Below, in pieces: positions 1-18,784 of a stretch of DNA of 21,605 bases. The notes under the pieces are model-generated. The model made no database searches, was not told the DNA's origin, and worked only from the letters and a program-made list of their open reading frames with translations. The stretch's first letter is position 1. Every line of letters begins with the position of its first letter. Origin of the DNA: a virus (lineage: Duplodnaviria > Heunggongvirae > Uroviricota > Caudoviricetes); the IMG/VR virus record IMGVR_UViG_2681813318_000014, one strand, 5' to 3'. The translations under genes were made by a program, and so were the position numbers.

Positions 1-186
1 TTAGTTTGTTTTACCATCATCAATCGTAATTGTGATTTCATATTTGAAAAGCTTAATGCTGAAATTGAAGCGTGTACTTTTGGCGATAATCATTTTTAAA
101 AGCTGATACACCAGAAGCACCAGAAACACAAAGCAACCTAAGCTTGCGAATCTGTGAGATTCAGCAATTGTTTCAAGAAAGCCCAT
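1..186 (-). CDS. small predicted membrane protein (61 aa), divergent from the RHH regulator gene
   Basis: ATG at 186 with AAGGGG RBS about 6 nt upstream; hydrophobic stretch LGCFVFLVLLVYQLL; stop at 1-3; own consensus-like promoter (237-265, minus strand). Confidence 0.35.
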   Translation of the reverse strand: MGFLETIAESHRFASLGCFVFLVLLVYQLLKMIIAKSTRFNFSIKLFKYEITITIDDGKTN

Positions 187-236
187 TAATTCCCCTTATT
201 TATCAAAGGGAATGACCTGTATCAGCCCCTGTAACC

Positions 237-287
237 ATAATATCATGTAAATGAGATGTTGACAATATGTTAAATAAATGTTAAGAT
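237..287. promoter_or_regulatory. divergent face-to-face sigma70 promoters with overlapping -35 boxes
   Basis: Plus strand: TTGACA 259-264, 17-bp spacer, TG-n-TAAGAT 279-287 (extended -10), driving the 323 gene. Minus strand: TTGTCA (complement of 260-265), 17-bp spacer, TATTAT (complement of 237-242), driving the 1..186 gene. Confidence 0.45.
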
Positions 288-322
288 TGTAGTATGAGTA
301 AGAGATTTAAGGAGATTTTACA

Positions 323-613
323 ATGACTCACACAGTTACGCGCCTTTTGCCAGAGGCATTTGAACGACTGGCAGCAATCAAAGCCAAATATCCCGATATG
401 AAGCACACAGCGCTTGTTGGGGAGATTTTAAAAGAGTCGGTAAACCTTAGCCCTTTCGATAACGTTAAGGGCGTTGCAGAGGGTTCTAAGGCCATCAGAA
501 TCACAACAGGCCAACTGGAACTACTCAAAGCACAGTCCGCAGTAGCAGGCTGCTCAATGATTCAGGTCTTGAGCGATAAGGTTTGCAAGCTTGCTGATAA
601 ATTGGAGGTTTAA
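323..613 (+). CDS. putative DNA-binding regulator with two ribbon-helix-helix-like repeats (CopG/Arc/Mnt type), 96 aa
   Basis: ATG 323 with AAGGAG 8 nt upstream; two segments with beta-strand-then-two-helices pattern (TRLLPEAFERLAAIKAKY... and IRITTGQLELLKAQSAVAGCSMIQVL); stop TAA overlaps next ATG (TAATG). Confidence 0.55.
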   Translation: MTHTVTRLLPEAFERLAAIKAKYPDMKHTALVGEILKESVNLSPFDNVKGVAEGSKAIRITTGQLELLKAQSAVAGCSMIQVLSDKVCKLADKLEV

Positions 614-999
614 TGTATGACTTTTATAAACATCGTGACCATTTGGTAAGATTTGACGGTAGAGTCTGGAAAGACATAACAGAAACCAATAAACCCAAGT
701 TTACCCACCAGCAATTAGCCTCAAGATTTGATATCTGGACTGAAGCACAAAAAGATAATGGTGATTTCGAGTTTATCAGGGGTTTTGATTATGCTTACGA
801 AGACGACCTTAAAGACGCCATTAAATTAATTGAAAATTTTAATGGAAATAATTCTGGTGACAAACACAAAGCCAATGGTAATCGGTATGACAGGGAGTTA
901 ATTCTTGATGCCATTTCCAGAGGTCAATCACAAAGTTATATTTCTGAGAAATACGGTTTATCACGCAGTCAATACTACAAGATTAAAGCGTCTGTGTAA
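613..999 (+). CDS. hypothetical protein with C-terminal helix-turn-helix (128 aa)
   Basis: ATG 613 overlapping upstream stop, GGAGG RBS at 604-608; C-terminal DRELILDAISRGQSQSYISEKYGLSRSQYYKIK resembles recombinase/terminase-small-subunit type HTH. Confidence 0.5.
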   Translation: MYDFYKHRDHLVRFDGRVWKDITETNKPKFTHQQLASRFDIWTEAQKDNGDFEFIRGFDYAYEDDLKDAIKLIENFNGNNSGDKHKANGNRYDRELILDAISRGQSQSYISEKYGLSRSQYYKIKASV

Positions 1000-1136
1000 G
1001 CCTGTGAGAATGAGTGAGACTCAAAGATGAGCTACCCTATTACTAAGGTGTCTCACTCCCTCTGTAACCCGCATGGTTACTGGCCTCAGAATGGCTATTT
1101 TGGCAGATTTAAGATGTGTTTTAGAGGAATTTAAAA

Positions 1137-1460
1137 ATGAATAATCACCCAATGCAAATTTTCGTTGATAACGACACCGCTATGATGATTCAGGCTTTCA
1201 CTGATGTAGGTGTTAGCATTGACTTTGATAAGTTGTTAGAGTTAATGGCTGATAATGCGGAAAGCATCTCTGACTTTATTCACTCGGTGGAGTTTAACGA
1301 GCCTCGAATGATGCTACCAATTAAAGACAGCAACATGAAAAGATTGGTTATCGAGCAAACGAACAAATACAGCGTTAGCCCTGAAAAATATCTCAAGGCA
1401 GCTATAGCAATTTTGTACAGCGATAATATTCTGGTGACGGATTCGAAGGTGGTGCATTAA
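1137..1460 (+). CDS. hypothetical protein (107 aa)
   Basis: ATG 1137 with GAGGAA RBS 7 nt upstream; no recognisable motif. Confidence 0.5.
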   Translation: MNNHPMQIFVDNDTAMMIQAFTDVGVSIDFDKLLELMADNAESISDFIHSVEFNEPRMMLPIKDSNMKRLVIEQTNKYSVSPEKYLKAAIAILYSDNILVTDSKVVH

Positions 1461-1537
1461 TGGGTTTAATAATTGCTTGGACGCTGTTAGGGTTATTTGT
1501 TGGTTGCTGGATGGGTAACACAGTAAATAAGAATTGA
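1460..1537 (+). CDS. possible 25-aa hydrophobic peptide (MGLIIAWTLLGLFVGCWMGNTVNKN)
   Basis: ATG overlaps the upstream TAA (TAATG); AAGGTGG-like RBS 7 nt upstream; single transmembrane-like segment; below the ORF-track size cutoff. Confidence 0.3.
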   Translation: MGLIIAWTLLGLFVGCWMGNTVNKN

Positions 1538-1561
1538 TGTTACCAATCTGTTAAAAAGCTG

Positions 1562-1590
1562 TTGACAAATAACCTTAAACATGACATAAT
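1562..1590 (+). promoter_or_regulatory. near-consensus sigma70 promoter (TTGACA-17-CATAAT with TG extension)
   Basis: TTGACA 1562-1567, 17-bp spacer, TGaCATAAT 1582-1590; followed by AGAGAG/CTCTCT hairpin at 1610-1626 and about 430 nt without an ORF before the 2023 gene. Confidence 0.45.
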
Positions 1591-1760
1591 TTTAATTATA
1601 GAGAGAATTGCTCTCTTATTTCTTTCAACAATTCCATCTACATCTAGGGATAGTTATTCTGAAAGGTGCAATGCTTTTCGCTACATGGCCTATTTAGCCC
1701 ACTAGATAGGCTATATATCAAAAAGTGCTTAATCATTCATTATTGAACCCTTACAGCTTT

Positions 1761-1788
1761 GCCCTAATCATGAGTTAGGGCTTTCTTT
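1761..1788 (+). terminator. intrinsic-terminator-like hairpin
   Basis: GCCCTAA (1761-1767), 7-nt loop, TTAGGGC (1775-1781), then TTTCTTT. Confidence 0.4.
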
Positions 1789-1857
1789 AAGAGTTTTTAA
1801 ACAGAGCTTTTAAAGAAAGTTTTTCCTGAAACTTCGTTAACGTTAAAGCAAACCTTC

Positions 1858-1901
1858 AAAGCCCTTCACAGATAAGGATGAACCTATGTTTAGGGCTTTT
1901 T
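1858..1901 (+). terminator. second terminator-like hairpin in the leader
   Basis: AAGCCCT (1858-1864) pairs with AGGGCTT (1891-1897), followed by a T6 run; the loop is long (about 26 nt), so the structure may be more complex. Confidence 0.3.
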
Positions 1902-2022
1902 TCAGCTTTTAAAAAGCATACTTGGCAAACCGCCTTTTAAGCCTCTTCTAAGTTTAGATAGGCTGTCAGGTGTGCTTTTTAAAAACTGAAACATAAATTA
2001 TCTTAGAAGAGGAAAAATAATA

Positions 2023-2727
2023 ATGTCTATCCGTGATGAACATGAAATGATTATCGAAAACAAACCAAGTGCACTTGATATTCACGAATTAAGTTTGCGT
2101 GAATCTTTTGATAGAGCTTGGCGGGAATCACACGAAGTAAATAAAGGTCCATATATTCCACCAGAACCACTCGAGATTCCAAGAGTTGAAATTGATTTTT
2201 CTATGAACGAACGGTGTGAACTTGATTTGAAGTTGAAGCTACAACGCCGATATTTCCAAGCTATTAAAGACTCTCAAGAAGCAATGAGAAGTGTTTACGA
2301 GAAAATTCAGTCCAAGCTTGAAGACGAAATTGACGAAATGGCTATTTTGATGGAGCTTCAAACCAATTCTTATGCTTATTTCTCTCGACTAGACCGTGAC
2401 GGTTGGGGGTATGACCCTGTAGAGATTGGTAAAGTGATTGCAGATTTACCAGAAGGTCAAAGAGTTGTTCGTACAGAAAGAGCCATTAGAGCGCCACATC
2501 GACTGTCTCTAATTGTTGCTGATAAATCACAAGCTGAGCTTGAAGAAATTGCCAAAGAGAAACTGATGAAAGCAAGAGAAAATGAGATTAATTTGCTGAA
2601 ATCAAGACTGGCTAAGCTGATTAGTGACCATCAAGCGCTGGCTAAGGAGTACCGTCAAGAGTTGGCACAGATTATCAGCTTCAATGATTTTCTGAGTGTT
2701 CCACGAGAATTTAGCAAGGCTGTTTAA
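2023..2727 (+). CDS. hypothetical protein, charged/helical (234 aa)
   Basis: ATG 2023 with GAGGA RBS; composition rich in E/K/R/L suggests coiled coil; no recognised motif. Confidence 0.55.
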   Translation: MSIRDEHEMIIENKPSALDIHELSLRESFDRAWRESHEVNKGPYIPPEPLEIPRVEIDFSMNERCELDLKLKLQRRYFQAIKDSQEAMRSVYEKIQSKLEDEIDEMAILMELQTNSYAYFSRLDRDGWGYDPVEIGKVIADLPEGQRVVRTERAIRAPHRLSLIVADKSQAELEEIAKEKLMKARENEINLLKSRLAKLISDHQALAKEYRQELAQIISFNDFLSVPREFSKAV

Positions 2728-2749
2728 TTATGCATATGTGAGGTGATGA

Positions 2750-2965
2750 ATGATTGATTTAACAGAACGCTATGAAACTATTCGGTCTGTTTGTGAAAAC
2801 TTAAAGTTACAAACTAAACCAGCCTTAAGAATTAAAAGCAAACATCAAATTATCACCTCACGCAAACCAAAAACACGCAAGATTCCAAAGTGGTGTATCG
2901 ACCGTATCCCTTCCGATGCTCAAATTATAGGTGAAACGGAACTACATTATCTTGTCAGGCATTAA
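2750..2965 (+). CDS. small basic hypothetical protein (71 aa)
   Basis: ATG 2750 with GAGGTG RBS; K/R-rich. Confidence 0.45.
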   Translation: MIDLTERYETIRSVCENLKLQTKPALRIKSKHQIITSRKPKTRKIPKWCIDRIPSDAQIIGETELHYLVRH

Positions 2966-3062
2966 AAAAGAATGGTTGGGTGTATGAGATAGGTTCTATC
3001 GAATCTATAACACGGGGAGAGATTATCGAGTGATATCGGTAGTTTCTCCCTTTTTTGTATGT

Positions 3063-3129
3063 GTGCTACGTGAAATCTTCTGAACAGATATACCCACCAA
3101 AAATTATTTTTTACGTAGCTCACGCTTAA
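3063..3129. repeat. about 65-bp conserved element, copy A, immediately upstream of the tape-measure-like gene
   Basis: CTACGTGAA...ATACCCAC-CAAAAATTATTTTTTACGTAGCTCACGCTTAA; a 32-bp core is identical to copy B at 5326-5392; contains the internal inverted repeat GCTACGT...ACGTAGC about 41 bp apart. Confidence 0.6.
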
Positions 3130-3147
3130 AGAGGTGAAAAAATATGA

Positions 3148-5316
3148 ATGGCACAATTTAAAGTTGATGATTTTCTGATTGAGTTAAGTTTTAACTCTCA
3201 GAAAGTTTTAAAAGGCTTGGAAAAAGCCGAGAAACAAACGATGCAGGTAGCATCACGAATTGAGAAGCGATTGAATAAAGCTTTTAAAGTTAACCCTACG
3301 CCTTTAAATGATTCTCTCAAGGTCATGGAAAGAAATGTCGATAAAACTGTTTCCAAGATTGAGCAGCGTCTTAAAAACACTAGAGTGTTTAAGATTAAAA
3401 CGGAAATTGAGGATACTTTAAAGCCACTTAGACAACCAAGACAGCCACGAATTAGCGGCAACAGAGCAATCACAGCAGCTTACTCAGCGAATATGAGCAA
3501 GCTAAAAGGCTTTGACCCTATTTTGCAGAAATACATCAAATCTCAGTTTTACGGGCTATCTGCTAAAGCCGGGTCAATGGATAATTCAAAATTCAATGAG
3601 AAGCTGGCTCAGCTAAATGCTTCAGTCAGAGAAGCAATTGCTAAAGCTAAAGGTCATACATCCACCAGCATTAATAATACAAGCGACGCATTTAATAATC
3701 TTGCAAGCAATGCAATTAAGTTATCTGGTGCATTTTACTCTGTGATGGGTGCTCTTAACGCTTACAAGGCCATTATGAATGCAGGTCTTAAACGAGATTC
3801 CGCACAGAGAGCCGCTAAGTTTGTACTTGGTGATAAAGCATCTGAGGCTGAAACATTTATCAGGGGACTGGCTGACAAGACAGGTCTTAATATCTCTGAA
3901 GGGCTATCAAGCTACGCTAAGTTTGCAGCAGGTGCTCAGGGTTCTATGTCACAGGAACAGACACAGGAGCTATTTGGTAATGCAACGGCTATGAGTCGCT
4001 TAATGGGGCTTAGTAATGATGAGCTAAACGGCATTTTGAAAGCTTTTGAGCAGATGGCTTCTAAGGGCAAGATTCAGGCTGAAGAATTACGTGGGCAGTT
4101 AGGTGACCGTATGGCTGGTGCATTTAAGCTATTCGCTGAAGCACTGGGTATGACTGCTACAGAGCTTGATAAAGCGATGAAAGACGGGAAGATTTTAAGT
4201 AGTGATACTCTCCCTAAAGTCGCTAAACAGATGGGCTTGATGATTGATAAAGCGGGTGGCTGGGCTGAAGTCGCTAAGAGCACCCAGACAGCTTTAGGTA
4301 AGTTAGCAAACAACTGGGATGATACGATGGTGAAAATCTTCTCAGGTTCACAGGATGAGCTAAACGGCTTCTTATCCAGCCTGAGTAACCTGCTTAGTGA
4401 AATGGGGATGAGTTCTTCTATCGCTGGTGATGCTATCGGTGGGCTTATCGACATGCTTAAAGCTGGTGTAGATGATATTCGCGTATTCAATAACACCATT
4501 GAAGGCTGGATTTTACAGGTTAAAAAGTTCTATTACAGCCTTGATGACACTAAACGAAAACTACTTGATGAAGTCGGTGATGGTTTTATCAATTTTGTCA
4601 AAGGTCTTGCTATAGCGTTATCTGCAAAGACGCTATTCAGTGCCACTACAGGGGTTATGAACCTGACAAGAGCAATCACAACGTTAGGTACAAGAGCTAA
4701 TCAGGTGGCTGGTCAGGTAGCTACTGGTAAAGGTGGTGAAAAACTGAAAGGTGTAGCTGGTGGTGTAGGTAGTGCTCTTGCAATTGGTTATGCTGATGAC
4801 GGTTATGAAACAGCGTTAGCATTAGCTTCAATGATTCCACAAATCAGAGGTGTCACCCTTGGTTTATATGCATTGAAGAAAGCACTGGATTTTATGAATC
4901 AGGAAGTAGTCAAAAACGCTAACATGCATCCATCTGGGGTAGGTGTGGGTAGTGACTTTAATCCTGTGTATTCTGGTGACCCTAATAAACCGAATATGAT
5001 TAATGAAGGGTGGATTAAAATTTTTAGTTCAATGGGTGAATTGTTTAACAATGCCACAATGAATATTGCAAGATTCAATCATCCAGAATTAAACAACATT
5101 AAGCAAGAAGCATCACTAACCAGCGCAGATATTCAAAGTCTGAGGGATGAAATCTCTGCTTTAAGTAAGCGTATTCAGGAGCCTGTGAAAGTTTCACTTG
5201 GTGGTGAAGTTGCCATTAAACCAGATGAAACATCGTTTATGACCTTTAGCGGTAATATTTACGACCAATACGCAGAAGCTACGCTATTAAGTTCATCATT
5301 TCCAGAAGATGATTGA
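3148..5316 (+). CDS. tape-measure-domain protein (phage tail length tape measure-like), 722 aa
   Basis: Segment LKAFEQMASKGKIQAEELRGQLGDRMAGAFKLFAEALGMTATELDKAMKDGKILSSDTLP matches the conserved tape-measure motif as recalled from memory; central Gly/Ala-rich hydrophobic segments; GAGGTG RBS upstream. Confidence 0.7.
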   Translation: MAQFKVDDFLIELSFNSQKVLKGLEKAEKQTMQVASRIEKRLNKAFKVNPTPLNDSLKVMERNVDKTVSKIEQRLKNTRVFKIKTEIEDTLKPLRQPRQPRISGNRAITAAYSANMSKLKGFDPILQKYIKSQFYGLSAKAGSMDNSKFNEKLAQLNASVREAIAKAKGHTSTSINNTSDAFNNLASNAIKLSGAFYSVMGALNAYKAIMNAGLKRDSAQRAAKFVLGDKASEAETFIRGLADKTGLNISEGLSSYAKFAAGAQGSMSQEQTQELFGNATAMSRLMGLSNDELNGILKAFEQMASKGKIQAEELRGQLGDRMAGAFKLFAEALGMTATELDKAMKDGKILSSDTLPKVAKQMGLMIDKAGGWAEVAKSTQTALGKLANNWDDTMVKIFSGSQDELNGFLSSLSNLLSEMGMSSSIAGDAIGGLIDMLKAGVDDIRVFNNTIEGWILQVKKFYYSLDDTKRKLLDEVGDGFINFVKGLAIALSAKTLFSATTGVMNLTRAITTLGTRANQVAGQVATGKGGEKLKGVAGGVGSALAIGYADDGYETALALASMIPQIRGVTLGLYALKKALDFMNQEVVKNANMHPSGVGVGSDFNPVYSGDPNKPNMINEGWIKIFSSMGELFNNATMNIARFNHPELNNIKQEASLTSADIQSLRDEISALSKRIQEPVKVSLGGEVAIKPDETSFMTFSGNIYDQYAEATLLSSSFPEDD

Positions 5317-5325
5317 TTTAACGGT

Positions 5326-5392
5326 GTTCTACGTGAATAAAGCAAAGTTAATACCCACACCAAAAATTATTTTTTACGTAGCTCACGCTTAA
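5326..5392. repeat. about 65-bp conserved element, copy B, immediately upstream of the 5473 gene
   Basis: CTACGTGAA...ATACCCACACCAAAAATTATTTTTTACGTAGCTCACGCTTAA; same core and same internal inverted repeat as copy A. Confidence 0.6.
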
Positions 5393-5472
5393 CAGAGAAA
5401 ACACTTATATATCAAAGGCTTGGTTAAAAATGATTAAAATACACTAAGCCTTTGAAATCAAAGGAGAATTTA

Positions 5473-6261
5473 ATGATTTTTAGCAATCAAATCCGCTACA
5501 GTGGCAAAGATGGCATCTATTTCCACTTAAGAGATAATGTAGATGCCTTCTTAACTTTATCAGCTACTGAAAACATGGAATTTGACAGCCCTATGCAGGT
5601 CACTACACAAAACATGCAATCAGGGCAAACCGTCACAGATAATGTGCAAAGAGCACCCAGAACAATCACTATTAGTGGTGTCGTTGTAGTTGGCTATGAA
5701 GGGAGCTTATTATTAACTCGTCAGGGCCAGTTAGTAGAAAACTTCATCGACACTCTTGAAAGCTGGAGAGACCAGAAACAAATTATTTCAGTGATTTGTA
5801 AAGATGGTATCAAGATTGATGACTCAATTATTACCAACTTTAAAGCCTCTAAAGATGTTACTATCTCTAACGGTCTTCGTATCCAGCTAACTTTTCAGGA
5901 AATTAACTTCAAAGCCGTTGTGGGTCAAACTGATATTTCAGCAGCAACTGGAAAGACCGCTACTACAAATGATGGTGGTGTGACCAGTAAGAAGAATGCA
6001 GGTAACGTGACCACTGAACGCAATAACGCGCCTATGCTATCGTGCAAAGAGTTAATGAGTATTAACGATGTATCCGGTTACGCTCCAGCTATCAGAAATG
6101 ATATTCTCGATGCTCAGATTAAATGTAATAAGGCTTGGAAGCTGGATTATTCAGACTTAACAGAAGCTGAAAAAACCAACGTCACCAATGCTAACAGTAA
6201 CGCTGGTCGAGTAGCTTCAAAGCTTAAAAAGTACTCAGTGAACCCTCACAAAAAATACTAA
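5473..6261 (+). CDS. hypothetical beta-rich protein (262 aa), possibly a distal tail component
   Basis: ATG 5473 with AAGGAG 6 nt upstream (the track start at 5452 is a TTG with no RBS); position directly after a tape-measure gene; functional call is by position only. Confidence 0.5.
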
Positions 6262-6303
6262 ATCTCTACTACATCAACATCTATTAAACCCCTCTCAGTG
6301 ACT

Positions 6304-7782
6304 TCAGAAAGCGACTGTATAGCCTCTGTAACGTTGTCTGAGGGGTTTTCTGTTATTGGTAGGGTGGATTGACTTACTATTGTGAAAAGTTACTTTACAG
6401 CGACGTTTAGCAGTATTTAAAACGACCTCTTTAACAGCACTTTTGATTATCAGTTGTGCTTCAATCCTTCCCGCCTTTGTAGTCAAGTCACAATCAGACA
6501 AACACCCCACATCAATAGATTTAAGGCGTTGTGTCTCCTTCTCGATATCCGCATCAACCTGTGATAGCTCACCTTTTAACTGTTTTAGTTTGCTGGTAAT
6601 AGCGGACAAGTCTTCAATTTCAAGTGATAGCTGTACCAGCTTTTCAATATTGCTTGAGATGTGTTCACGGTGTAGCCTCAACATATCTATGGTATTCGTC
6701 ATATCGCTATCAAATCGGTCAAGACGAGATAGCAGGGTAAGTAATGTACCATCGGTTTGCTTACGTGACAGCCCTTTAGCACTACAACGGTTTTCATTAC
6801 GAAGAGGACAACGATAAATCCCGCTTCTTGTATCGCTAAAGCCTGTGATAATCAAAGCATGACCACATTCAGAACAACGGATAACACCTTTAAAGAGATT
6901 CACACTCAATGGTTTATCTGAAACAGGTTTTCTTCCATAACGAGAATATGATAGTTGCTGGACTTTGTAGAAATCAGTCTCAGGGATGATAGAGGGGAAA
7001 TAACCAGTTATCTCCTCACAGCCTTTAGGTGTGAAGTAACCAATTACAGAGCGATTCTTCAGAAGGTCTTGCACTGAGGTTTGACCAAACTTACCCGCTT
7101 TATATTGGTTAAGTGTCTGGTGACCTTCATCATTAAGAGTCCTGACAATCTCCCAGATAGACTTACCCTCTAACCGTAGCTGAAAGCACCTCTTCACAGT
7201 CTCCACTTTCTCAGGTATCACAGAGAAGCTTTTACGGTCATCATTCAGCCTTAACCATGCAGGACAACGCTTAGAAATCTTGATACCTTCAGAGATGAGT
7301 TCTTTTTTACGGTTCCATGCAGCTTGTATACGCTCAGACTTCCTCAAACTCTCCTCATGCGACCGCTGCATTATCAGAATGCTTTTAATCAGAGCTAACG
7401 GGTCTTTAAGAGATTCCCTTGTGTAATGTTCACCATCGGACAAGGTGACTACATCTACACCAGAGCGAAGAATGTTTCGTAATAGCTCACTTGCTCGGTC
7501 TACGTTCTGGCGTGACAAACGGTCAAGAGATTCTATCAAGAGCGTATCACCAGCTTTAACAAGCCCTTTCTCGATAGCGGTTAAAAAGTCACCTAAGCCA
7601 CCTTTCAAGTGCTTACCAGTAAACCCGCTAACGCCTAAATCACGGAAGGATAAATCTTGGTCAAGGTAGTACTCAGGATGAGCCTTAAGCCAGTCATTAA
7701 CCATCTTAGACTGTCTGCGTAGTGAATCACCTCGGGATTGCTTCTCAGATGAAAACCTGATGTAAGAAATGGCACGTTTCAT
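6304..7782 (-). CDS. large serine recombinase (integrase/resolvase family), 492 aa
   Basis: N-terminal resolvase-type catalytic region with Ser in AISYIRFSSEKQ; long recombinase domain; Cys-rich zinc-ribbon-like segment CSECGH...CP; C-terminal coiled coil; GGTGAGGTG RBS; at the edge of the AT-rich block next to chromosomal DNA. Confidence 0.85.
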   Translation of the reverse strand: MKRAISYIRFSSEKQSRGDSLRRQSKMVNDWLKAHPEYYLDQDLSFRDLGVSGFTGKHLKGGLGDFLTAIEKGLVKAGDTLLIESLDRLSRQNVDRASELLRNILRSGVDVVTLSDGEHYTRESLKDPLALIKSILIMQRSHEESLRKSERIQAAWNRKKELISEGIKISKRCPAWLRLNDDRKSFSVIPEKVETVKRCFQLRLEGKSIWEIVRTLNDEGHQTLNQYKAGKFGQTSVQDLLKNRSVIGYFTPKGCEEITGYFPSIIPETDFYKVQQLSYSRYGRKPVSDKPLSVNLFKGVIRCSECGHALIITGFSDTRSGIYRCPLRNENRCSAKGLSRKQTDGTLLTLLSRLDRFDSDMTNTIDMLRLHREHISSNIEKLVQLSLEIEDLSAITSKLKQLKGELSQVDADIEKETQRLKSIDVGCLSDCDLTTKAGRIEAQLIIKSAVKEVVLNTAKRRCKVTFHNSKSIHPTNNRKPLRQRYRGYTVAF

Positions 7783-7832
7783 TGTTCACCTCACCTAATA
7801 ACCCCTAGATTGTATCGCTTTAGGTGGTGTAT

Positions 7833-8234
7833 TTAAACGTGTCTAATAAAAATCACCCGATTAACGCCGCGCTGATGTAAACCGCGATTAAGCGTTTGTT
7901 CCTCTTCCCCTTTGGCGAAAAACTGTGGATGGCGGACTTCCACACCATAATTAAATTCGCCAGGGAGAGAATCGAGAAAATGCCAAAGCGCAGGCAGCTC
8001 CCGTGGGCCGAATGTGGCAGGCAGTTGCAGCCAGTATTGCCCAATGCGCGGAGCCAACGGTGACATGCGGGTCAAAAATTCAGTCACTAAATCATCGCAA
8101 TGTCGTAATGCTGCCTGATGCGAAATGGTCGCCGGAAACTTAAAACAGAAGCGGAAGTCATCTGTGGTCTGTTCACGCCAGCGCAGGACAACCTCGGGTT
8201 TCGGCAGGGCGTAAAGCGTGGTGTTGCCCTCCAC
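7833..8234 (-). pseudogene. yecE: fragment of a chromosomal DUF72-family gene (consistent with yecE), missing both ends
   Basis: GC-richer composition than both flanks; sequence CVEGNTTLYALPKPEVVLRWREQTTDDFRFCFKFPATISH fits the conserved DUF72 N-proximal pattern as recalled; no native start (frame open into the integrase 3' end); only about 133 codons versus roughly 270 expected. Confidence 0.5.
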
Positions 8235-8260
8235 GCAGTTAACATGACGGGTATTAAGGA

Positions 8261-9574
8261 TTAACTTACTGATTTTAATAAGCCTCTGGTGTCACTTTGG
8301 TGACTATGGGGCATCATTGGGACATAATCTGTCAGCTTCTGATTCAGCATTGCGATCTGTTCTGCATTGCTGTCAGTCATCCATGCTCCGTATACATTGA
8401 ATACCATCTGGGCACTTGCATGGCCCATCTGGCTGGCAATGAAGCTTGGGTTTGCTCCGGCAGATAATGACCAGCACGCATAAGTGTGTCGTGACTGGTA
8501 TGCCTTTCGATGCCTGATCCCTGCACGCTTAATGGCTGTTTCCCATGAGTCACCTACAGAATCGACTTTGTAGACAAAACCTACCTGTTCGCTTTTTCTA
8601 ACCACTTGAGGGTTAAACACGAAAGTACATTCATGGTTCACTGAACGTCCATATTCACGTAGTTGCACCTTGATGTTGTACTGCTTACCCAGTCTTGTCA
8701 TTTCAGCCTGATTTTTCAGGACACTGATAGCGGGCTGGATAAGGTGCACAACCCTGTTTGTGCTTGCTTCAGTTTTCGGTAGAGTGAACTCACCAAGTTT
8801 CGTATAATTGCGCCTGATGGTAATTGTTCCTGCCTTCAGATCGATATCTTCCCAGGCCAGGGAGACCAGTTCACCGTGACGCATTCCTGTGTACACAGCC
8901 AATGACCACAGGTTTTTCGTCTGCTGATGTCGGCAAGCATCTATCAGGCGAATAAATTCGTCACGAGTTAGCGGATCTGGCTCTGCCCTGGCTCTTTTAA
9001 GAGGCTTAATTCCCTGGAAGGGATTTGCTTCTAAGTAACCGTGATCTGCAGCAAACTGAAACATTCCAGCGATTGTCGTCATGTAATAATTTACAGTAAC
9101 GACGCTCCGTCCTTTTGCTGCTGCTTTGTTTTTCGTTGAATTCTGATACCCGGTAAGCAAATCTTTCCTGATATACAGCAATTCCTCTTTGGTTACCGAT
9201 GACACCAGTCTACTGCCTCCAATTTTCGGAACCATCGTTCTTGCAACGGATTCATAGCGATTGAATGCATTTGCAGAGATTTCCATTCGTTTCAGATCCA
9301 GCCACTTTTCTTCAAGTTCCTTCACCGTAATTTCTTTTTTACTTACCCCAAAAGCCTGAAGGTTGGGGGAGTCAGGGAACTGTGCAGCATAATCAAAGCT
9401 TCCTGTGCGGATGGCAAAACATACTGATGTCCGCAGTTCCCCGGCGATCTTCCTGTTCTTGGCAGTGTCAGGGACACCAAGATTTTCCCTGACACGTTTA
9501 CCGTTAAAATTAAACCAGATGCGTAATGTGCCGCCGTGGTTTTCGACGCCTGTTGGATATTTGACTTTATCCAT
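8261..9574 (-). CDS. int: phage tyrosine integrase (437 aa)
   Basis: C-terminal catalytic-region residues consistent with a tyrosine recombinase (AYQSRHTYA..., ...VYGAWM); N-terminal arm-type domain; GGAGGT RBS; immediately downstream of an excisionase-like gene on the same strand. Confidence 0.85.
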   Translation of the reverse strand: MDKVKYPTGVENHGGTLRIWFNFNGKRVRENLGVPDTAKNRKIAGELRTSVCFAIRTGSFDYAAQFPDSPNLQAFGVSKKEITVKELEEKWLDLKRMEISANAFNRYESVARTMVPKIGGSRLVSSVTKEELLYIRKDLLTGYQNSTKNKAAAKGRSVVTVNYYMTTIAGMFQFAADHGYLEANPFQGIKPLKRARAEPDPLTRDEFIRLIDACRHQQTKNLWSLAVYTGMRHGELVSLAWEDIDLKAGTITIRRNYTKLGEFTLPKTEASTNRVVHLIQPAISVLKNQAEMTRLGKQYNIKVQLREYGRSVNHECTFVFNPQVVRKSEQVGFVYKVDSVGDSWETAIKRAGIRHRKAYQSRHTYACWSLSAGANPSFIASQMGHASAQMVFNVYGAWMTDSNAEQIAMLNQKLTDYVPMMPHSHQSDTRGLLKSVS

Positions 9575-14715: not shown

Positions 14716-14846
14716 GGCTTCCTCAGCTGACTTATATGTTCTGCTATATAGCGAGTCTCAGAAGTGTTTTCATATTGAGACTGTTTCCGCAATGATTGAT
14801 AAAAATGTTCGCATGTACCTTGAAGGGCGAAGCGGCGATTATGTCA

Positions 14847-15392
14847 CTATTGGTATTGGTTCTTCCGCAGAAGAGCTTCGCGAGATAAGGGGCAAACTTG
14901 TTGAGATGCGTCATGGTGTTGCTGCTCCTCACTTTTTGGTTGCTCCGGAGGAGTAACCTCACCAGTTAACAGCCACATCGGATCGCAGCCAAGAATATTT
15001 GCCAGTGGGATAAGCATACTGATAGTTGGTTCATACTCTCCGCTCTCCCACTGGATGATAATTTCTTCATCGAGATCGAGCAGCCTGGCGAGTTCGGCGG
15101 TTGTTAAGCCGCAGGCTTCGCGTTGGGTGCGAAGGTTAACCAGCCAGCTTTCAGGGAAGGATTGTTTTTGTTGTGCAGGAGAAGCAGCAGATAGAGCATA
15201 TTCATGGATAAATTCCATTACCTCAATGCCCAGTTCCTTTGAGCGAGCACAATCCAGAAGATGGAATGTGCGTACAGCACTTAGCAAATTTGCAATATTT
15301 AATGCAAAGGAATCAAGTTCTAAGCCCTTAAGCGTAACACAGCCGCAGTTGATAAAATTAGTTGTTTCTGGAGTTGCTTTTAGTGTCTTCAT
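14847..15392 (-). CDS. two-domain protein with C-terminal XRE-type helix-turn-helix (181 aa from ATG 15392)
   Basis: HTH segment LTTAELARLLDLDEEIIIQWESGEYEPTISMLIPLANILGCDPMWLL; the track start at 15422 is a TTG, the first ATG is at 15392; the N-terminal 90 residues are unassigned. Confidence 0.55.
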   Translation of the reverse strand: MKTLKATPETTNFINCGCVTLKGLELDSFALNIANLLSAVRTFHLLDCARSKELGIEVMEFIHEYALSAASPAQQKQSFPESWLVNLRTQREACGLTTAELARLLDLDEEIIIQWESGEYEPTISMLIPLANILGCDPMWLLTGEVTPPEQPKSEEQQHHDASQQVCPLSREALLRKNQYQ

Positions 15393-15444
15393 ATATCCGC
15401 CAACAATTTTAAATTGAATCAAATCAAGTTATAATTGATGGTGC

Positions 15445-15473
15445 GATATTATGTTTTGGGAAACAGGCTGTCA
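15445..15473 (-). promoter_or_regulatory. PL-like early-left promoter
   Basis: Minus strand TTGACA (complement of 15468-15473), 17-bp spacer, TAATAT (complement of 15445-15450); near-palindrome ATCAAGTTATAATTGAT at 15423-15439 just downstream, operator-like. Confidence 0.45.
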
Positions 15474-15503
15474 AGAAAAAATTGATATCGTATATTTCAG
15501 GCA

Positions 15504-15525
15504 GAAAAAAACGGGCAAAGCCCGT
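15504..15525 (-). terminator. intrinsic terminator after the cI gene
   Basis: Minus-strand hairpin ACGGGC-TTT-GCCCGT followed by a T7 run, 13 nt after the cI stop. Confidence 0.5.
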
Positions 15526-15537
15526 TAAAATCAAAGA

Positions 15538-16227
15538 CTAACCAAATCTGTTTATGTTGAATGGTACTGATGAGATCACTTTAGACTGGATATAAAGCAG
15601 AGCTAACCCCTCTTTTTCGATGCTCCATGGTTGATAATTGGGGTTATCAGATAACACCATGATTTTGCTTCCAATTTTTTGAAGCCTTTTCACGTAGCAT
15701 TCTCCATCAAAACAAAATGCATAAATACCATCGCCATCAAAATAAGTTACTGTCTTATCAAGAAAAAGAAGGTCGCCAGGTGAGATTGTGGGAGCCATAC
15801 TGTCTCCTCTGGCGTTACCTATTTCTATATTTTTGAATGCCCGATTTCCAACAAGACGTCGGGCATATTCAGGATCAAGTTCTATTGAGCGCACTACATC
15901 TATCAAGTCACCACGGACATGAGTTCCATCACCGCAACTAAACTCAACATCAAGGACATTAAATACGACGCTATCTGTTCTTGTCTGGTGTTTCTCTTGC
16001 GAGGAAAAGGTTGGTGAGGAGTCTTCACCTAAGAACCAGGATTGTGGATAACCGCTAATCTCTGATAAATGCGCGAGCTTATCACTCCGTGGAAATGTTT
16101 TTCCTGTTGTCCAGTACTGCACTGATTGCGCACTCACACCTAACTTGCGGGCCAGTTGAGCCTGAGTCCATCCTTTTGCTTTCAGCATCGCGGCTATTCG
16201 ATTTTCCGTGTTTTTGACGTTCTTCAT
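15538..16227 (-). CDS. cI: prophage repressor, cI-like (HTH plus LexA-type S24 peptidase domain), 229 aa
   Basis: N-terminal HTH (WTQAQLARKLGVSAQSVQYW); C-terminal autocleavage domain with Ser in GDSMAPT and Lys in VKRL; divergent from a cro-like gene; start moved to ATG 16227 (track start is TTG). Confidence 0.85.
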   Translation of the reverse strand: MKNVKNTENRIAAMLKAKGWTQAQLARKLGVSAQSVQYWTTGKTFPRSDKLAHLSEISGYPQSWFLGEDSSPTFSSQEKHQTRTDSVVFNVLDVEFSCGDGTHVRGDLIDVVRSIELDPEYARRLVGNRAFKNIEIGNARGDSMAPTISPGDLLFLDKTVTYFDGDGIYAFCFDGECYVKRLQKIGSKIMVLSDNPNYQPWSIEKEGLALLYIQSKVISSVPFNINRFG

Positions 16228-16233
16228 GACCAA

Positions 16234-16360
16234 ATCCTGTGGGTTTCTTTACAAGGATAAATCTTTACTTGATTTTAGTGTATTCGATCCTTTTGTAACT
16301 TGCATGTTAATTTAAACTTGATGTATTCTTGATTTATAAAGTTAATATTGGTGCTTTGTT
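16234..16360. promoter_or_regulatory. immunity-region operator/promoter zone between cI and cro
   Basis: Three imperfect 17-bp sites ending in ACTTGAT/CTTGAT (16257-16273, 16306-16322, 16317-16333) related to the palindrome next to the PL-like promoter; TAATAT -10-like hexamer at 16343-16348. Confidence 0.45.
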
Positions 16361-16633
16361 ATGGAAGGAAATGATTACGACAAACTTCGTGCATTAATTG
16401 CGCAAAATGCCATAGCGCGAAATCTTGGTGTGACGCCGCAAGCGGTGAATCAGTGGTTTTCAAAAAACACAATTCCTGCTCGTTTCGTTTTACGCGTATG
16501 TGAAGTAGTTGCATGGAAGGTCACGCCACATGGCTTAAGGCCAGATCTTTATCCTCACCCTGAAGATGGAATTCCTGATTCGTTACGCAAAATTTCAAAT
16601 CCAAGCTTAGCGCACACAGAGGACGAGAAGTGA
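16361..16633 (+). CDS. cro: Cro-like repressor, YdaS-type HTH (90 aa)
   Basis: Divergent from cI; segment NLGVTPQAVNQWFSKNTIPARFVLRVCEVVAWKVTPHGLRPDLYP fits the YdaS/Cro-type HTH family as recalled. Confidence 0.7.
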   Translation: MEGNDYDKLRALIAQNAIARNLGVTPQAVNQWFSKNTIPARFVLRVCEVVAWKVTPHGLRPDLYPHPEDGIPDSLRKISNPSLAHTEDEK

Positions 16634-16673
16634 TGGTGGTGATATGAGCGAAAAAATAACTATTAAATACGAT

Positions 16674-16696
16674 GGGGCAACCATTTCGATTGCCCC
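16674..16696 (-). terminator. hairpin downstream of the antisense moron gene
   Basis: GGGGCAA-9 nt-TTGCCCC stem; on the minus strand a U-rich stretch follows but is not immediately adjacent; weak. Confidence 0.25.
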
Positions 16697-16703
16697 AATC
16701 ACA

Positions 16704-16997
16704 TTAGCGTTCGCTGAGAAGTTGTTGGTAAGCCTTAAAGGATGCGAACTGCATTCTACCTTCGGCATTGATTCCAATGCCTTCGCTTGTACACCAGGTG
16801 ATGAACTCGGCTGTATCCGCTTCAACTTTAATAACTCGTTGCCCGCTTCTTTCGACACGCTTAATCAATTTTTCAGCGTCGTGTTTCCACTCGGTGTAAC
16901 TGTCGGAGAGCACATCAGCATCAGTAAAAATATTTTTGAGCTCATGATACTGAATCGCATCGCGAAACCAGAATAAACCAACGGCCTGAACTTTCAT
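16704..16997 (-). CDS. hypothetical protein (97 aa) encoded antisense within the early-right operon (moron-like)
   Basis: ATG 16997 with AAGGAGG RBS 7 nt upstream; opposite strand to cro and the rha genes; no recognised motif. Confidence 0.5.
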   Translation of the reverse strand: MKVQAVGLFWFRDAIQYHELKNIFTDADVLSDSYTEWKHDAEKLIKRVERSGQRVIKVEADTAEFITWCTSEGIGINAEGRMQFASFKAYQQLLSER

Positions 16998-17116
16998 GTC
17001 GAACCTCCTTTGGTTCTTTTGTTTATAGGGATCAAAAGGATAACTGAAGGAAGGTTCGGCACCAATAAGTACGAATGTGCGGAATCTTAAAAGAATTTAT
17101 CCGTAAGGAGATGGCA

Positions 17117-17824
17117 GTGAACACCGCAATTTTTAACGACAAAGCATCCATGACCAGCGTTGAGATCGCAGAGCTGGTGGGTAAACGTCATGACAATGTG
17201 AAACGCACTATTGAAACATTAGCCAAAGGTGGCGTTGTCCGGTCTCCTCAAATTGAGGTTTCCGAAAGAATCAATAACTTAGGTTTTAAAGTTCAATATG
17301 AGCATTACCTGTTTGAAGGAGAACAAGGTAAGCGCGACAGCATCATTGTCGTCGCACAGCTCTGTCCTGAATTCACTGCTCGCCTGGTAGATCGCTGGCG
17401 CGAACTGGAAGAACAGATCCGTAAGCCAATGAGCGAAATCGAAATGGTTGCCGCGATGGCTCTTGAAGCCGTTCGCCAACAGAAACGGATCACTCAGGTG
17501 GAAGAAAAAGTCAGCCACGTTGCTGAAACAGTCGAGCAAATTAAAAAGGGCACTATTCGTGAGGGCTATGCCGGATATCGCCAACTGAAAGCAAAAACCG
17601 GTTTGTCAGATGATAAATGCCGCAATCTGGTGAACGCCTATCAGATTCCTACAGACACCCATGAGTTCATGACGCCGGACGGATTGTTGTCACGTCGCGC
17701 AATTGTTGCTGTGGAACCGTTTATGGCTGCTTTTTATCGGGTTATGGAGGAAGCAGAACCGCGAGGGACTCGCTGGTATCACCCGAAAATGGGGTTATTT
17801 CAGGTTATTGGTTGGCAGCGGTGA
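17117..17824 (+). CDS. phage regulatory protein, Rha family (about 235 aa)
   Basis: Motif SVEIAELVGKRHDNVKRTIETL matches the Rha-family N-terminal signature as recalled; the track ATG at 17075 has no RBS; ATG 17111 abuts AAGGAG with no spacer, so GTG 17117 (6-nt spacer) is favoured; the start is uncertain by a few codons. Confidence 0.65.
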   Translation: MNTAIFNDKASMTSVEIAELVGKRHDNVKRTIETLAKGGVVRSPQIEVSERINNLGFKVQYEHYLFEGEQGKRDSIIVVAQLCPEFTARLVDRWRELEEQIRKPMSEIEMVAAMALEAVRQQKRITQVEEKVSHVAETVEQIKKGTIREGYAGYRQLKAKTGLSDDKCRNLVNAYQIPTDTHEFMTPDGLLSRRAIVAVEPFMAAFYRVMEEAEPRGTRWYHPKMGLFQVIGWQR

Positions 17825-17847: not shown

Positions 17848-18232
17848 TCACTCAACATCAATAACGGGGAGCTGTTTCGCATAAAACGGCTCCGAAACAT
17901 CCAAGAACAGTTCTAAAGATATCAGCAGCTATATGATCATTTCAAGACCAAATATTGATTCTGCAATTTCGGGACGTTACACTGTCTCTGCACCTTATAA
18001 AGCGGGTGCCGGGGGTCGCAGCCCGGAATTGTCAACGGCGATATATGACGCGCCAGCGTCTTTTTTATCGTCCGCGCTCACGCACGCCAGAATTATGGTG
18101 GGCTGGGCAGGGGAGCCGAAAGGCTCGCCGGTCTCCGTTGACGCCGGTACTGCGAACCCTGTTCAGTCTGCCACCAGTGAGTTTCGCAGCTCCGGTGGTG
18201 GAAGTTTTCCACAGTCAACGGAGGCTGCCATC

Positions 18233-18784
18233 ATGGCTACGATCCCAACCCTCACTCAACCTGAAATTGCCATCGTTGATGGTCAGGCTGTTACTTCATC
18301 CCTGGCTGTTGCCAACTTCTTCTCCAAGCGTCATGACGATGTACTGAAAAAGATCCGCACGCTTGAATGCTCCGCATCATTCACTGCCCGCAATTTTTCG
18401 GTGAGTGATTACACCGATTGCACAGGCCGCAAACTACCTTGCTATCAAATCACCCGTGATGGCTTCGCGTTCCTTGCTATGGGCTTTACTGGCAAACGTG
18501 CAGCCCGGTTCAAAGAGGCATACATCAACGCCTTTAACCTGATGGAGAAGAGTTTATCAGGTGCCGATGCGTCTGATATGTCAGCTGTCGCACGAAACGC
18601 CAGAGGCGTATACCTGCATTTGCGTGAAATCCATCAAATCTGGACAAGCCAGCTTTATCCAATGCTTAAGGCCGTTGAATCTCCGCTGGCTAGCAAACTG
18701 TACGACCGTGTTGGTGATGCTGTTTTTGGCGCTGCACTTGTTGATTCCAGGCTGAATGGTTCTGACAAGGAGGTTCGCCCATGA
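18233..18784 (+). CDS. second Rha-family-like regulatory protein (183 aa)
   Basis: ATG 18233 with GGAGG 9 nt upstream; motif AVTSSLAVANFFSKRHDDVLKKIRTLE; the track's longer version (from 17933) adds a GC-rich low-complexity extension with no RBS. Confidence 0.65.
   Translation: MATIPTLTQPEIAIVDGQAVTSSLAVANFFSKRHDDVLKKIRTLECSASFTARNFSVSDYTDCTGRKLPCYQITRDGFAFLAMGFTGKRAARFKEAYINAFNLMEKSLSGADASDMSAVARNARGVYLHLREIHQIWTSQLYPMLKAVESPLASKLYDRVGDAVFGAALVDSRLNGSDKEVRP

Follow-up and report, generated by a model that had tools for sequence, protein, structure and literature searches.

Predicted operators of the cI-like repressor in an uncharacterised immunity type of Escherichia coli prophages

Results

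Five sites around the repressor gene

The IMG/VR virus record IMGVR_UViG_2681813318_000014 (Caudoviricetes) is a stretch of 21,605 nt; we call this whole stretch the window. It is an Escherichia coli prophage: positions 15380-16380 are 100% identical to the E. coli chromosome NZ_OZ547136.1. These positions belong to a lambdoid immunity region, with a gene for a cI-like repressor, a divergent cro gene and a leftward early operon. Five imperfect 17 base pair (bp) copies of the consensus ATCAAGTTnAACTTGAT flank the cI gene, two of them on its downstream side (OL1 and OL2) and three in the cI-cro spacer (ORa, ORb and ORc), as shown in Table 1. They are probably the operators of this region, where dimers of the cI-like repressor, and also Cro, would bind. 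We give this reading a probability of about 0.8, as judged from sequence comparisons. Other lambdoid phages suggest that Cro would recognise the same sites, its recognition helix being similar.

The consensus was derived without using the window. We have fetched the loci of cI relatives, 80 from IMG/VR and one from a Pantoea genome; a profile search of genome contigs with the cI alignment gave a single locus, that of Pantoea (L005). Some relatives have a cI protein 75-80% identical and flanks which do not align to the window. Downstream of cI they present ATCAAGTTAAACTTGAT and GTCAAGTTAAACTTGAT, in a position matching 15423-15486. The first of these is a perfect 17-bp palindrome with a central A/T, found at the OL1 position, and the second is the form that OL2 takes in these genomes. 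It is from such diverged relatives that ATCAAGTTnAACTTGAT has been obtained.

All 17-mers of the window were scored against this consensus. The two best are 15423-15439 (14/16) and 16306-16322 (13/16), which are OL1 and ORb. Both had been pointed out in the original prediction, made from the sequence alone, the former as a near-perfect palindrome overlapping the start of the predicted leftward transcript and the latter as the best match in the cI-cro region. The sequences are there (ATCAAGTTATAATTGAT and GTTAATTTAAACTTGAT), and the predicted start at about 15439 lies in the palindrome. To call the palindrome near-perfect was generous, with six of its eight pairs symmetric, yet no other place in the window matches the consensus so well. 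Its outer arms are invariant among E. coli relatives.

Eight places in the window reach at least 12/16, where 1.75 are expected, and six of them fall within the 278 intergenic bases flanking cI. These six include a weak extra site at 15402-15418. In a first-order Markov simulation with the AT-rich composition of the spacers the mean number of matches is 0.05, and none of 20000 runs reached the six observed. The pattern RTCAAK-N5-MTTGAY gives a similar picture: when one mismatch at most is allowed, it has four matches in the whole window, all of them in the two spacers around cI. Pooled over 65 distinct site sequences, the half-site reads R-T-C/a-A-A-G/t-T-T, with positions 4 and 5 invariant.

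The original prediction had described three sites in the cI-cro region which share the half-site ACTTGAT. This holds for two of them (16267-16273 and 16316-16322), the third one reads TCTTGAT (16327-16333), and ATCAAGTT is a better notation for the half-site. We have discarded that third site: the 17-mer at 16317-16333 scores 9/16, has two of eight symmetric pairs and overlaps ORb by 6 bp. Its TCTTGAT is not conserved; it is CTTGTG in L009, whose cI is identical, and it is absent in L077, L084 and L005. The conserved third right-hand site is ORc, just past the end of the region first described, and OL2 had also been missed. Four CTTGAT hexamers inside the cI coding sequence have been treated as chance occurrences: they are Leu-Asp codon pairs, and only one of the four is conserved in relatives. 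None of the papers in the library that we searched contains these 17-mers, and searches for the phage PhiR49 gave nothing relevant.

Conservation, spacing and linkage to the repressor

The arrangement of the sites is as well conserved as the sites themselves. In every lineage examined, the distance between centres is 47 bp from OL1 to OL2 and 30-31 bp from ORb to ORc. The ORa-ORb distance is 49-50 bp, and most lineages have ORa there. The layout of five sites with these spacings recurs in 136 loci, which contain 34 distinct site combinations, and the 17-bp register of both half-sites is fixed in all five sites. We have compared 49 distinct left and 28 distinct right spacers of E. coli-type relatives: 26% of the columns are variable inside the sites and 65% outside them (Fisher p ~1e-9, with no correction for phylogeny). 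The variation within sites is found mostly at the central bases, and the other invariant stretches are the predicted promoter hexamers. ORb is the least variable site.

The sites are linked to the repressor. A search of other genomes for the palindrome, which had been proposed along with the prediction, found the exact 17-mer in 90 IMG/VR stretches, and 55 of these copies adjoin a cI homologue (>60% identity). In each of the 55, a partner site lies at exactly 47 bp. The remaining 35 are single occurrences, nearly all of them in low-GC contigs. The exception is L146 (IMGVR_UViG_2744054915_000001, positions 1-1076), which codes for a different repressor of 301 amino acids, with two helix-turn-helix (HTH) domains and an S24 domain. 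Its first HTH domain shares 34% identity with the N-terminal domain of the window cI, with VSAQAAQQW as against VSAQSVQYW in the helix, and its divergent upstream spacer contains ATCAAGTTTAACTTGAT (62-78) and ATCAACTTAAACTTGTT (106-122). Since a similar helix and the palindrome occur together in an otherwise dissimilar repressor, the DNA-binding module and the operator seem to be shared.

Recognition helices point in the same direction. Those of cI (VSAQSVQYW) and Cro (TPQAVNQWF) are similar to each other and invariant across the group, and the whole cI HTH is identical in PhiR49_2, in the Shiga toxin 2 (Stx2) phages of O145/O157 and in phage phi467. Wherever the helix VSAQSVQYW is kept, the same sites are found. 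Repressors about 40% identical with a different HTH present other palindromes in the same two places, for example ATGT-N7-ACAT in Fels-1 and TGCGT-N-ACGCA in the Klebsiella phage ST147-VIM1phi7.2. L077 and L084 have in the left position a gene unrelated to the HTH protein of the window, or none, and yet they keep OL1 and OL2, so the left sites go with cI and cro, not with the left HTH protein.

Taken together, these computational tests all support the idea that the palindromes provide a candidate recognition sequence for the cI-like repressor of this immunity type, as had been proposed.

ORc shows a particular kind of variation. Relatives have ATCAAGTTAATATTGGT (L009), ATCAAGTTATACTTTAT (L077) or ATAAAGTTTAACTTGAT (L094, 15/16) in its place, and in these three loci the site is stronger than in the window. 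Position 16338 is the third ORc base, with C in the consensus. Even between E. coli relatives with the same or almost the same cI it differs, and all four bases occur (A in the window, C in L009, T in L049, G in L043). This looks like affinity tuning of the site over the PR start.

We should also note several features of the left spacer. The weak extra site at 15402-15418 (AACAATTTTAAATTGAA, 12/16) has as its core CAATTTTAAATTG (15404-15416), a perfect 13-bp palindrome. The left HTH gene has it in its 5' untranslated leader, 21 bp from the OL1 centre. This palindrome is only found in lineages carrying that gene, namely the window, phi467 and, in weaker form, the Stx2 type; L077, L084 and L005 lack it. 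Either cI might bind here, as at a weak sixth operator, or the left HTH protein might use the place to regulate its own gene. The left spacers of the Stx2 type and of phi467 (L002/L003 around 3490-3520, L004 around 3440-3500) have no cI terminator hairpin like that of the window. They present extra CTTGAT half-sites beside OL2 (ATTGATAAACTTGAT; TTTTACTTGATTT).

Table 1. Candidate operators, predicted promoters and genes of the immunity region
Feature	Position	Strand	Description
OL1	15423-15439	-	ATCAAGTTATAATTGAT; 14/16, best in the 21.6-kb window; about +1 to +17 of the predicted PL transcript
OL2	15470-15486	-	GTCAAGAAAAAATTGAT; 12/16; exact RTCAAK-N5-MTTGAY match; its promoter-proximal half is the predicted PL -35
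ORa (OR3-like)	16257-16273	-	ATAAATCTTTACTTGAT; 12/16; over the predicted PRM start; weakest site class
ORb	16306-16322	-	GTTAATTTAAACTTGAT; 13/16, second-best in the window; fills the predicted PR spacer and abuts the upstream side of the PRM -35
ORc (OR1-like)	16336-16352	-	ATAAAGTTAATATTGGT; 12/16; about +1 to +17 of the predicted PR transcript
Predicted PL	15446-15474	minus	-35 TTGACA 15474..15469, 17-bp spacer, -10 TAATAT 15451..15446; 10/12 consensus match
Predicted PR	16300-16329	plus	putative -35 TTGCAT 16300-16305, 18-bp spacer, -10 TATTCT 16324-16329
Predicted PRM	16277-16305	minus	putative -35 ATGCAA 16305..16300, 17-bp spacer, -10 TACACT 16282..16277; proposed from conservation
cI-like repressor, 229 amino acids	15538-16227	minus	N-terminal HTH (helix 3 VSAQSVQYW) and C-terminal S24 autoprotease
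Cro-like protein, 90 amino acids	16361-16633	plus	helix 3 TPQAVNQWF; Pfam YdaS_toxin and P22_Cro
Intrinsic terminator after cI	15510-15526	minus	between cI and OL2; terminator-scan hit with a T run after a 7-bp stem, 5 of whose pairs are GC
First gene of the PL operon, HTH protein of 181 amino acids	14847-15392	minus	Pfam HTH_3; PHROG 4836 'CII-like regulator'

Predicted promoters and proposed mechanism

The sites have a characteristic position with respect to the predicted promoters: the leftward promoter PL, the rightward promoter PR and the cI maintenance promoter PRM. The PL motif, TTGACn-17-TAnnnT, is kept in all lineages despite a diverged spacer, and a promoter scan has found it independently in the Pantoea locus L005. 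OL1 begins six bases past the PL -10, at about +1. OL2 always starts with G, which is explained if its promoter-proximal half is the PL -35.

For the right-hand promoters, the proposed hexamers follow from conservation. TTGCAT (16300-16305) is invariant in all lineages, with ORb directly after it and a TAnnnT hexamer 16-18 bp downstream in each of them. The PR transcript would then begin with the first base of ORc (about 16336), and a conserved GGTG-type ribosome-binding element would follow downstream. On the opposite strand, ATGCAA-17-TAnAnT is present in 13 of 13 representatives, and ORa lies three to four bases past its -10; the PRM transcript would start near 16270. We prefer it as PRM to the candidate given by the scan, GTTACA-16-TAAAAT (16299..16272), whose hexamers are not kept in diverged lineages. 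PR might also be TTGATG-19-TAATAT, which has better hexamers and overlaps ORb and ORc. Its spacer is long (19-20 bp) and its start would lie downstream of the conserved GGTG-type Shine-Dalgarno sequence of cro, so we have retained it as an alternative only. With all the alternatives considered, ORb and ORc are predicted to overlap core elements of PR, and ORa the PRM start.

This geometry suggests how the switch may work. Repressor bound to either left site would block leftward early transcription, OL2 containing the -35 of PL and OL1 covering its start. On the right side, ORb would fill the PR spacer and ORc cover the start, both of them blocking cro and the rightward early genes. ORb is also immediately upstream of the PRM -35. 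Lambda cI activates PRM from this position when bound to OR2, and the repressor here might do likewise. ORa, which belongs to the weakest class and covers the predicted PRM start, would be the site for shutting off cI synthesis, either at high repressor concentrations (negative autoregulation) or upon binding of Cro. During induction, self-cleavage of the S24 domain stimulated by RecA would empty the sites.

Alternative explanations

Several observations weigh against an operator function of the five sites. ORa, ORc and OL2 only reach 12/16, and ORa falls to 10-11/16 in some lineages. The variability test ignores phylogeny, and the E. coli relatives differ little from one another in most cases. 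The spacings of 30, 47 and 49 bp are unlike the cooperativity of adjacent sites in lambda, so that the logic of the switch may be different. The PR and PRM hexamers are weak (about 7/12), below the threshold of the promoter scan, and alternatives to them exist.

Furthermore, the consensus contains a -35-like TTGAT and a -10-like TAAACT, so promoter function may explain part of the conservation. Taken to its limit, this would mean that the conserved strings are just the -35 (TTGAT/TTGAC) and -10 (TAAACT/TAATAT) elements of early promoters, the palindrome being a by-product of divergent overlapping promoters in AT-rich DNA. The proximal half of OL2 is in fact the predicted PL -35, and ORc includes TAATAT. 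Nevertheless, OL1 lies downstream of the PL -10, where no promoter element is needed, and it is the best conserved and most symmetric site. The fixed 17-bp register of the half-sites in all five sites also argues against such a by-product, as does the fact that the exact 17-mer tracks cI homologues in IMG/VR. Shared sigma-70 elements do not predict that a repressor with another HTH should have other palindromes in the same places. We consider this explanation unlikely.

The two remaining explanations invoke a different protein. The left palindromes might be autoregulatory sites of the left HTH protein, and their likeness to the cI-cro sites a coincidence. OL1 is 30 bp upstream of the start codon of that gene, the protein has an HTH_3 domain, the E. 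coli, Stx2 and phi467 lineages conserve its HTH, and the palindrome CAATTTTAAATTG at 15404-15416 is restricted to lineages with the gene. On the other hand, L077 and L084 keep OL1 and OL2 at 47 bp with an unrelated gene or none in that place, all of the 55 IMG/VR loci with the palindrome pair have a cI homologue, and a single consensus serves the left and right sites. We consider this explanation very improbable. A host nucleoid protein such as the integration host factor (IHF, core WATCAA) might also bind the sites and shape the early promoter regions. IHF sites are common in lambdoid early regions, and AATCAA precedes or forms the left arm of OL1. The IHF consensus WATCAANNNNTTR requires TTR four bases after ATCAA, however, and by direct reading this element is missing from all five sites. 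IHF sites are asymmetric and these are two-fold symmetric; a site for a host factor is not expected to change with the repressor HTH or to track one cI family. A role of this kind is hardly credible, and operators of cI and Cro are in our opinion the best explanation for the five sites.

Genes of the immunity region and its surroundings

The immunity region is fairly common. At 80% identity or more it is found in 136 of 5426 complete E. coli genomes, in 146 places. Some E. coli chromosomes contain two copies, that is to say two prophages which are predicted to be homoimmune. Positions 14800-16700 share 98.8% identity with PhiR49_2, a phage of ECOR13; with phage phi467 and a set of Stx2a/Stx2d-converting phages the identity is 78-81%. 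The annotations of complete genomes only give generic XRE or LexA-family regulators for this region.

The cI-like repressor matches HTH_3 (4.9e-8) and Peptidase_S24 (4e-17) in Pfam and is a member of PHROG 4 (transcriptional repressor). The alignment of its C-terminal domain with UmuD/LexA includes both the GDSM serine and the VKRLQ lysine. The Cro-like protein resembles Cro proteins with a solved structure, those of a Xylella prophage (3bd1) and P22 (1rzs). Its open reading frame (ORF) is divergent from cI, with 133 bp between it and the cI start.

The left HTH protein (14847-15392) sits where lambda has N, and corresponds to the protein 'L10' of phage phiP27. All lineages have the same HTH, while Stx2 phages have a swapped or duplicated C-terminal part. 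To the right, between cro and a Rha-like gene, there is a 97 amino acid ORF on the minus strand (16704-16997), which belongs over its full length to PHROG 4753 (unknown function) and overlaps a plus-strand ORF of 110 amino acids without a family match. The 97 amino acid ORF is a moron-like insert within the early right operon. Downstream of cro there are two consecutive regulators of the Rha/antirepressor type, 17075-17824 and 17933-18784 (Pfam Phage_pRha; PHROG 821/518), in the place usually occupied by cII and the replication genes in lambdoid phages.

The beginning of the window (1-9574) has a different content. It contains tail genes, with a tape measure gene (3148-5316) and a Dit-like gene (5452-6261). 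After these come two genes on the minus strand, one for a large serine recombinase (6304-7782) and the other for a tyrosine integrase with an Arm DNA-binding domain (8261-9574). Probably two tandem prophages meet within the window, or a prophage ends there.

Discussion

The consensus ATCAAGTTnAACTTGAT and the map of five sites offer a testable recognition sequence for an immunity type which had none described. With this map, prophages can be placed in a single predicted homoimmune group, which includes PhiR49_2, the O145/O157 Stx2 phages and phi467. Relatives are found in Stx2a- and Stx2d-converting phages. The map may also be useful in the design of reporters for Stx-phage induction.

The general design is that of lambda. 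The repressor combines an HTH at its N-terminus with an S24 domain at its C-terminus, and cro is divergent. The sites are 17 bp long, with an imperfect two-fold symmetry around a central base, they are placed on both sides of cI, and three of them are in the cI-cro spacer. They are predicted to overlap PL, a strong and conserved consensus match, and may overlap PR and the cI maintenance promoter, which are weak consensus matches supported by conservation; the weakest site would lie over PRM. The similarity is one of arrangement: a similarity search has found no significant sequence match between the window cI and lambda cI.

Other aspects differ. Lambda operators are of the TATCACCGCCAGAGGTA type and adjacent, about 20-24 bp from centre to centre. 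Here the consensus is ATCAAGTTnAACTTGAT, the left side has two sites instead of three, and the sites are not adjacent, with centres 30-49 bp apart. In an array of the lambda type, each side has three neighbouring sites separated by about two turns of the helix, which allows cooperative binding in pairs. This is not what we find: the spacings are 47 bp on the left and 49 and 30 bp on the right, invariant across the 136 loci. The cI mRNA transcribed from PRM is leaderless in lambda, whereas the predicted PRM transcript would have a leader with a Shine-Dalgarno sequence. PR and PRM appear to share a single -35 hexamer on opposite strands.

A wiring unlike that of lambda may be proposed from these differences, although we regard it as rather doubtful. 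In such a wiring, PR and PRM would share their -35 (TTGCAT/ATGCAA, 16300-16305), ORb would both fill the PR spacer and take the activator position of PRM, each of the three promoter starts would be covered by a second operator, and the repressors would interact at a distance, by looping, or not at all, in place of the pairwise cooperativity of lambda. The last option comes from phage 933W, whose repressor has been reported not to bind adjacent sites cooperatively. Non-cooperativity of this kind would also suit the wide spacing of our sites. This predicted geometry of promoters and operators would be the sole unusual aspect of the region.

Phage 933W offers other points of comparison. It has five natural operators of 15 bp, each of them rotationally symmetric about a central base pair (PMC3317979). 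The total number of operators is thus the same, both are prophage switches of E. coli, and relatives of the type studied here are found in Stx2-converting phages. Going by the published description (PMC3317979), the sites differ in length, 17 bp as against 15 bp, and in their conserved core.

Among characterised proteins, the P22-type C2 repressors are some of the closest relatives, with 34.5% identity over the full length. The operators of P22 have 18 bp and a centre of symmetry between bases 9 and 10; their outer half-sites are conserved, while the centre varies and is probably not contacted (PMC4267663). Our sites also have conserved outer half-sites and a variable centre, but they have 17 bp with a central base, and the recognition helix is different. 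By sequence, the closest repressors of named phages are the cI of HK022 (37%) and that of Fels-1 (40%). Fels-1 has the same gene layout, with palindromes on both sides of the repressor gene; the difference lies in its HTH (DVGNISRLERG) and in the palindromes already mentioned.

In summary, the comparison with these phages confirms an ordinary lambda-style design and does not alter it. What the five sites add is a well-founded prediction of which operators serve a fairly common immunity type that had not been characterised.

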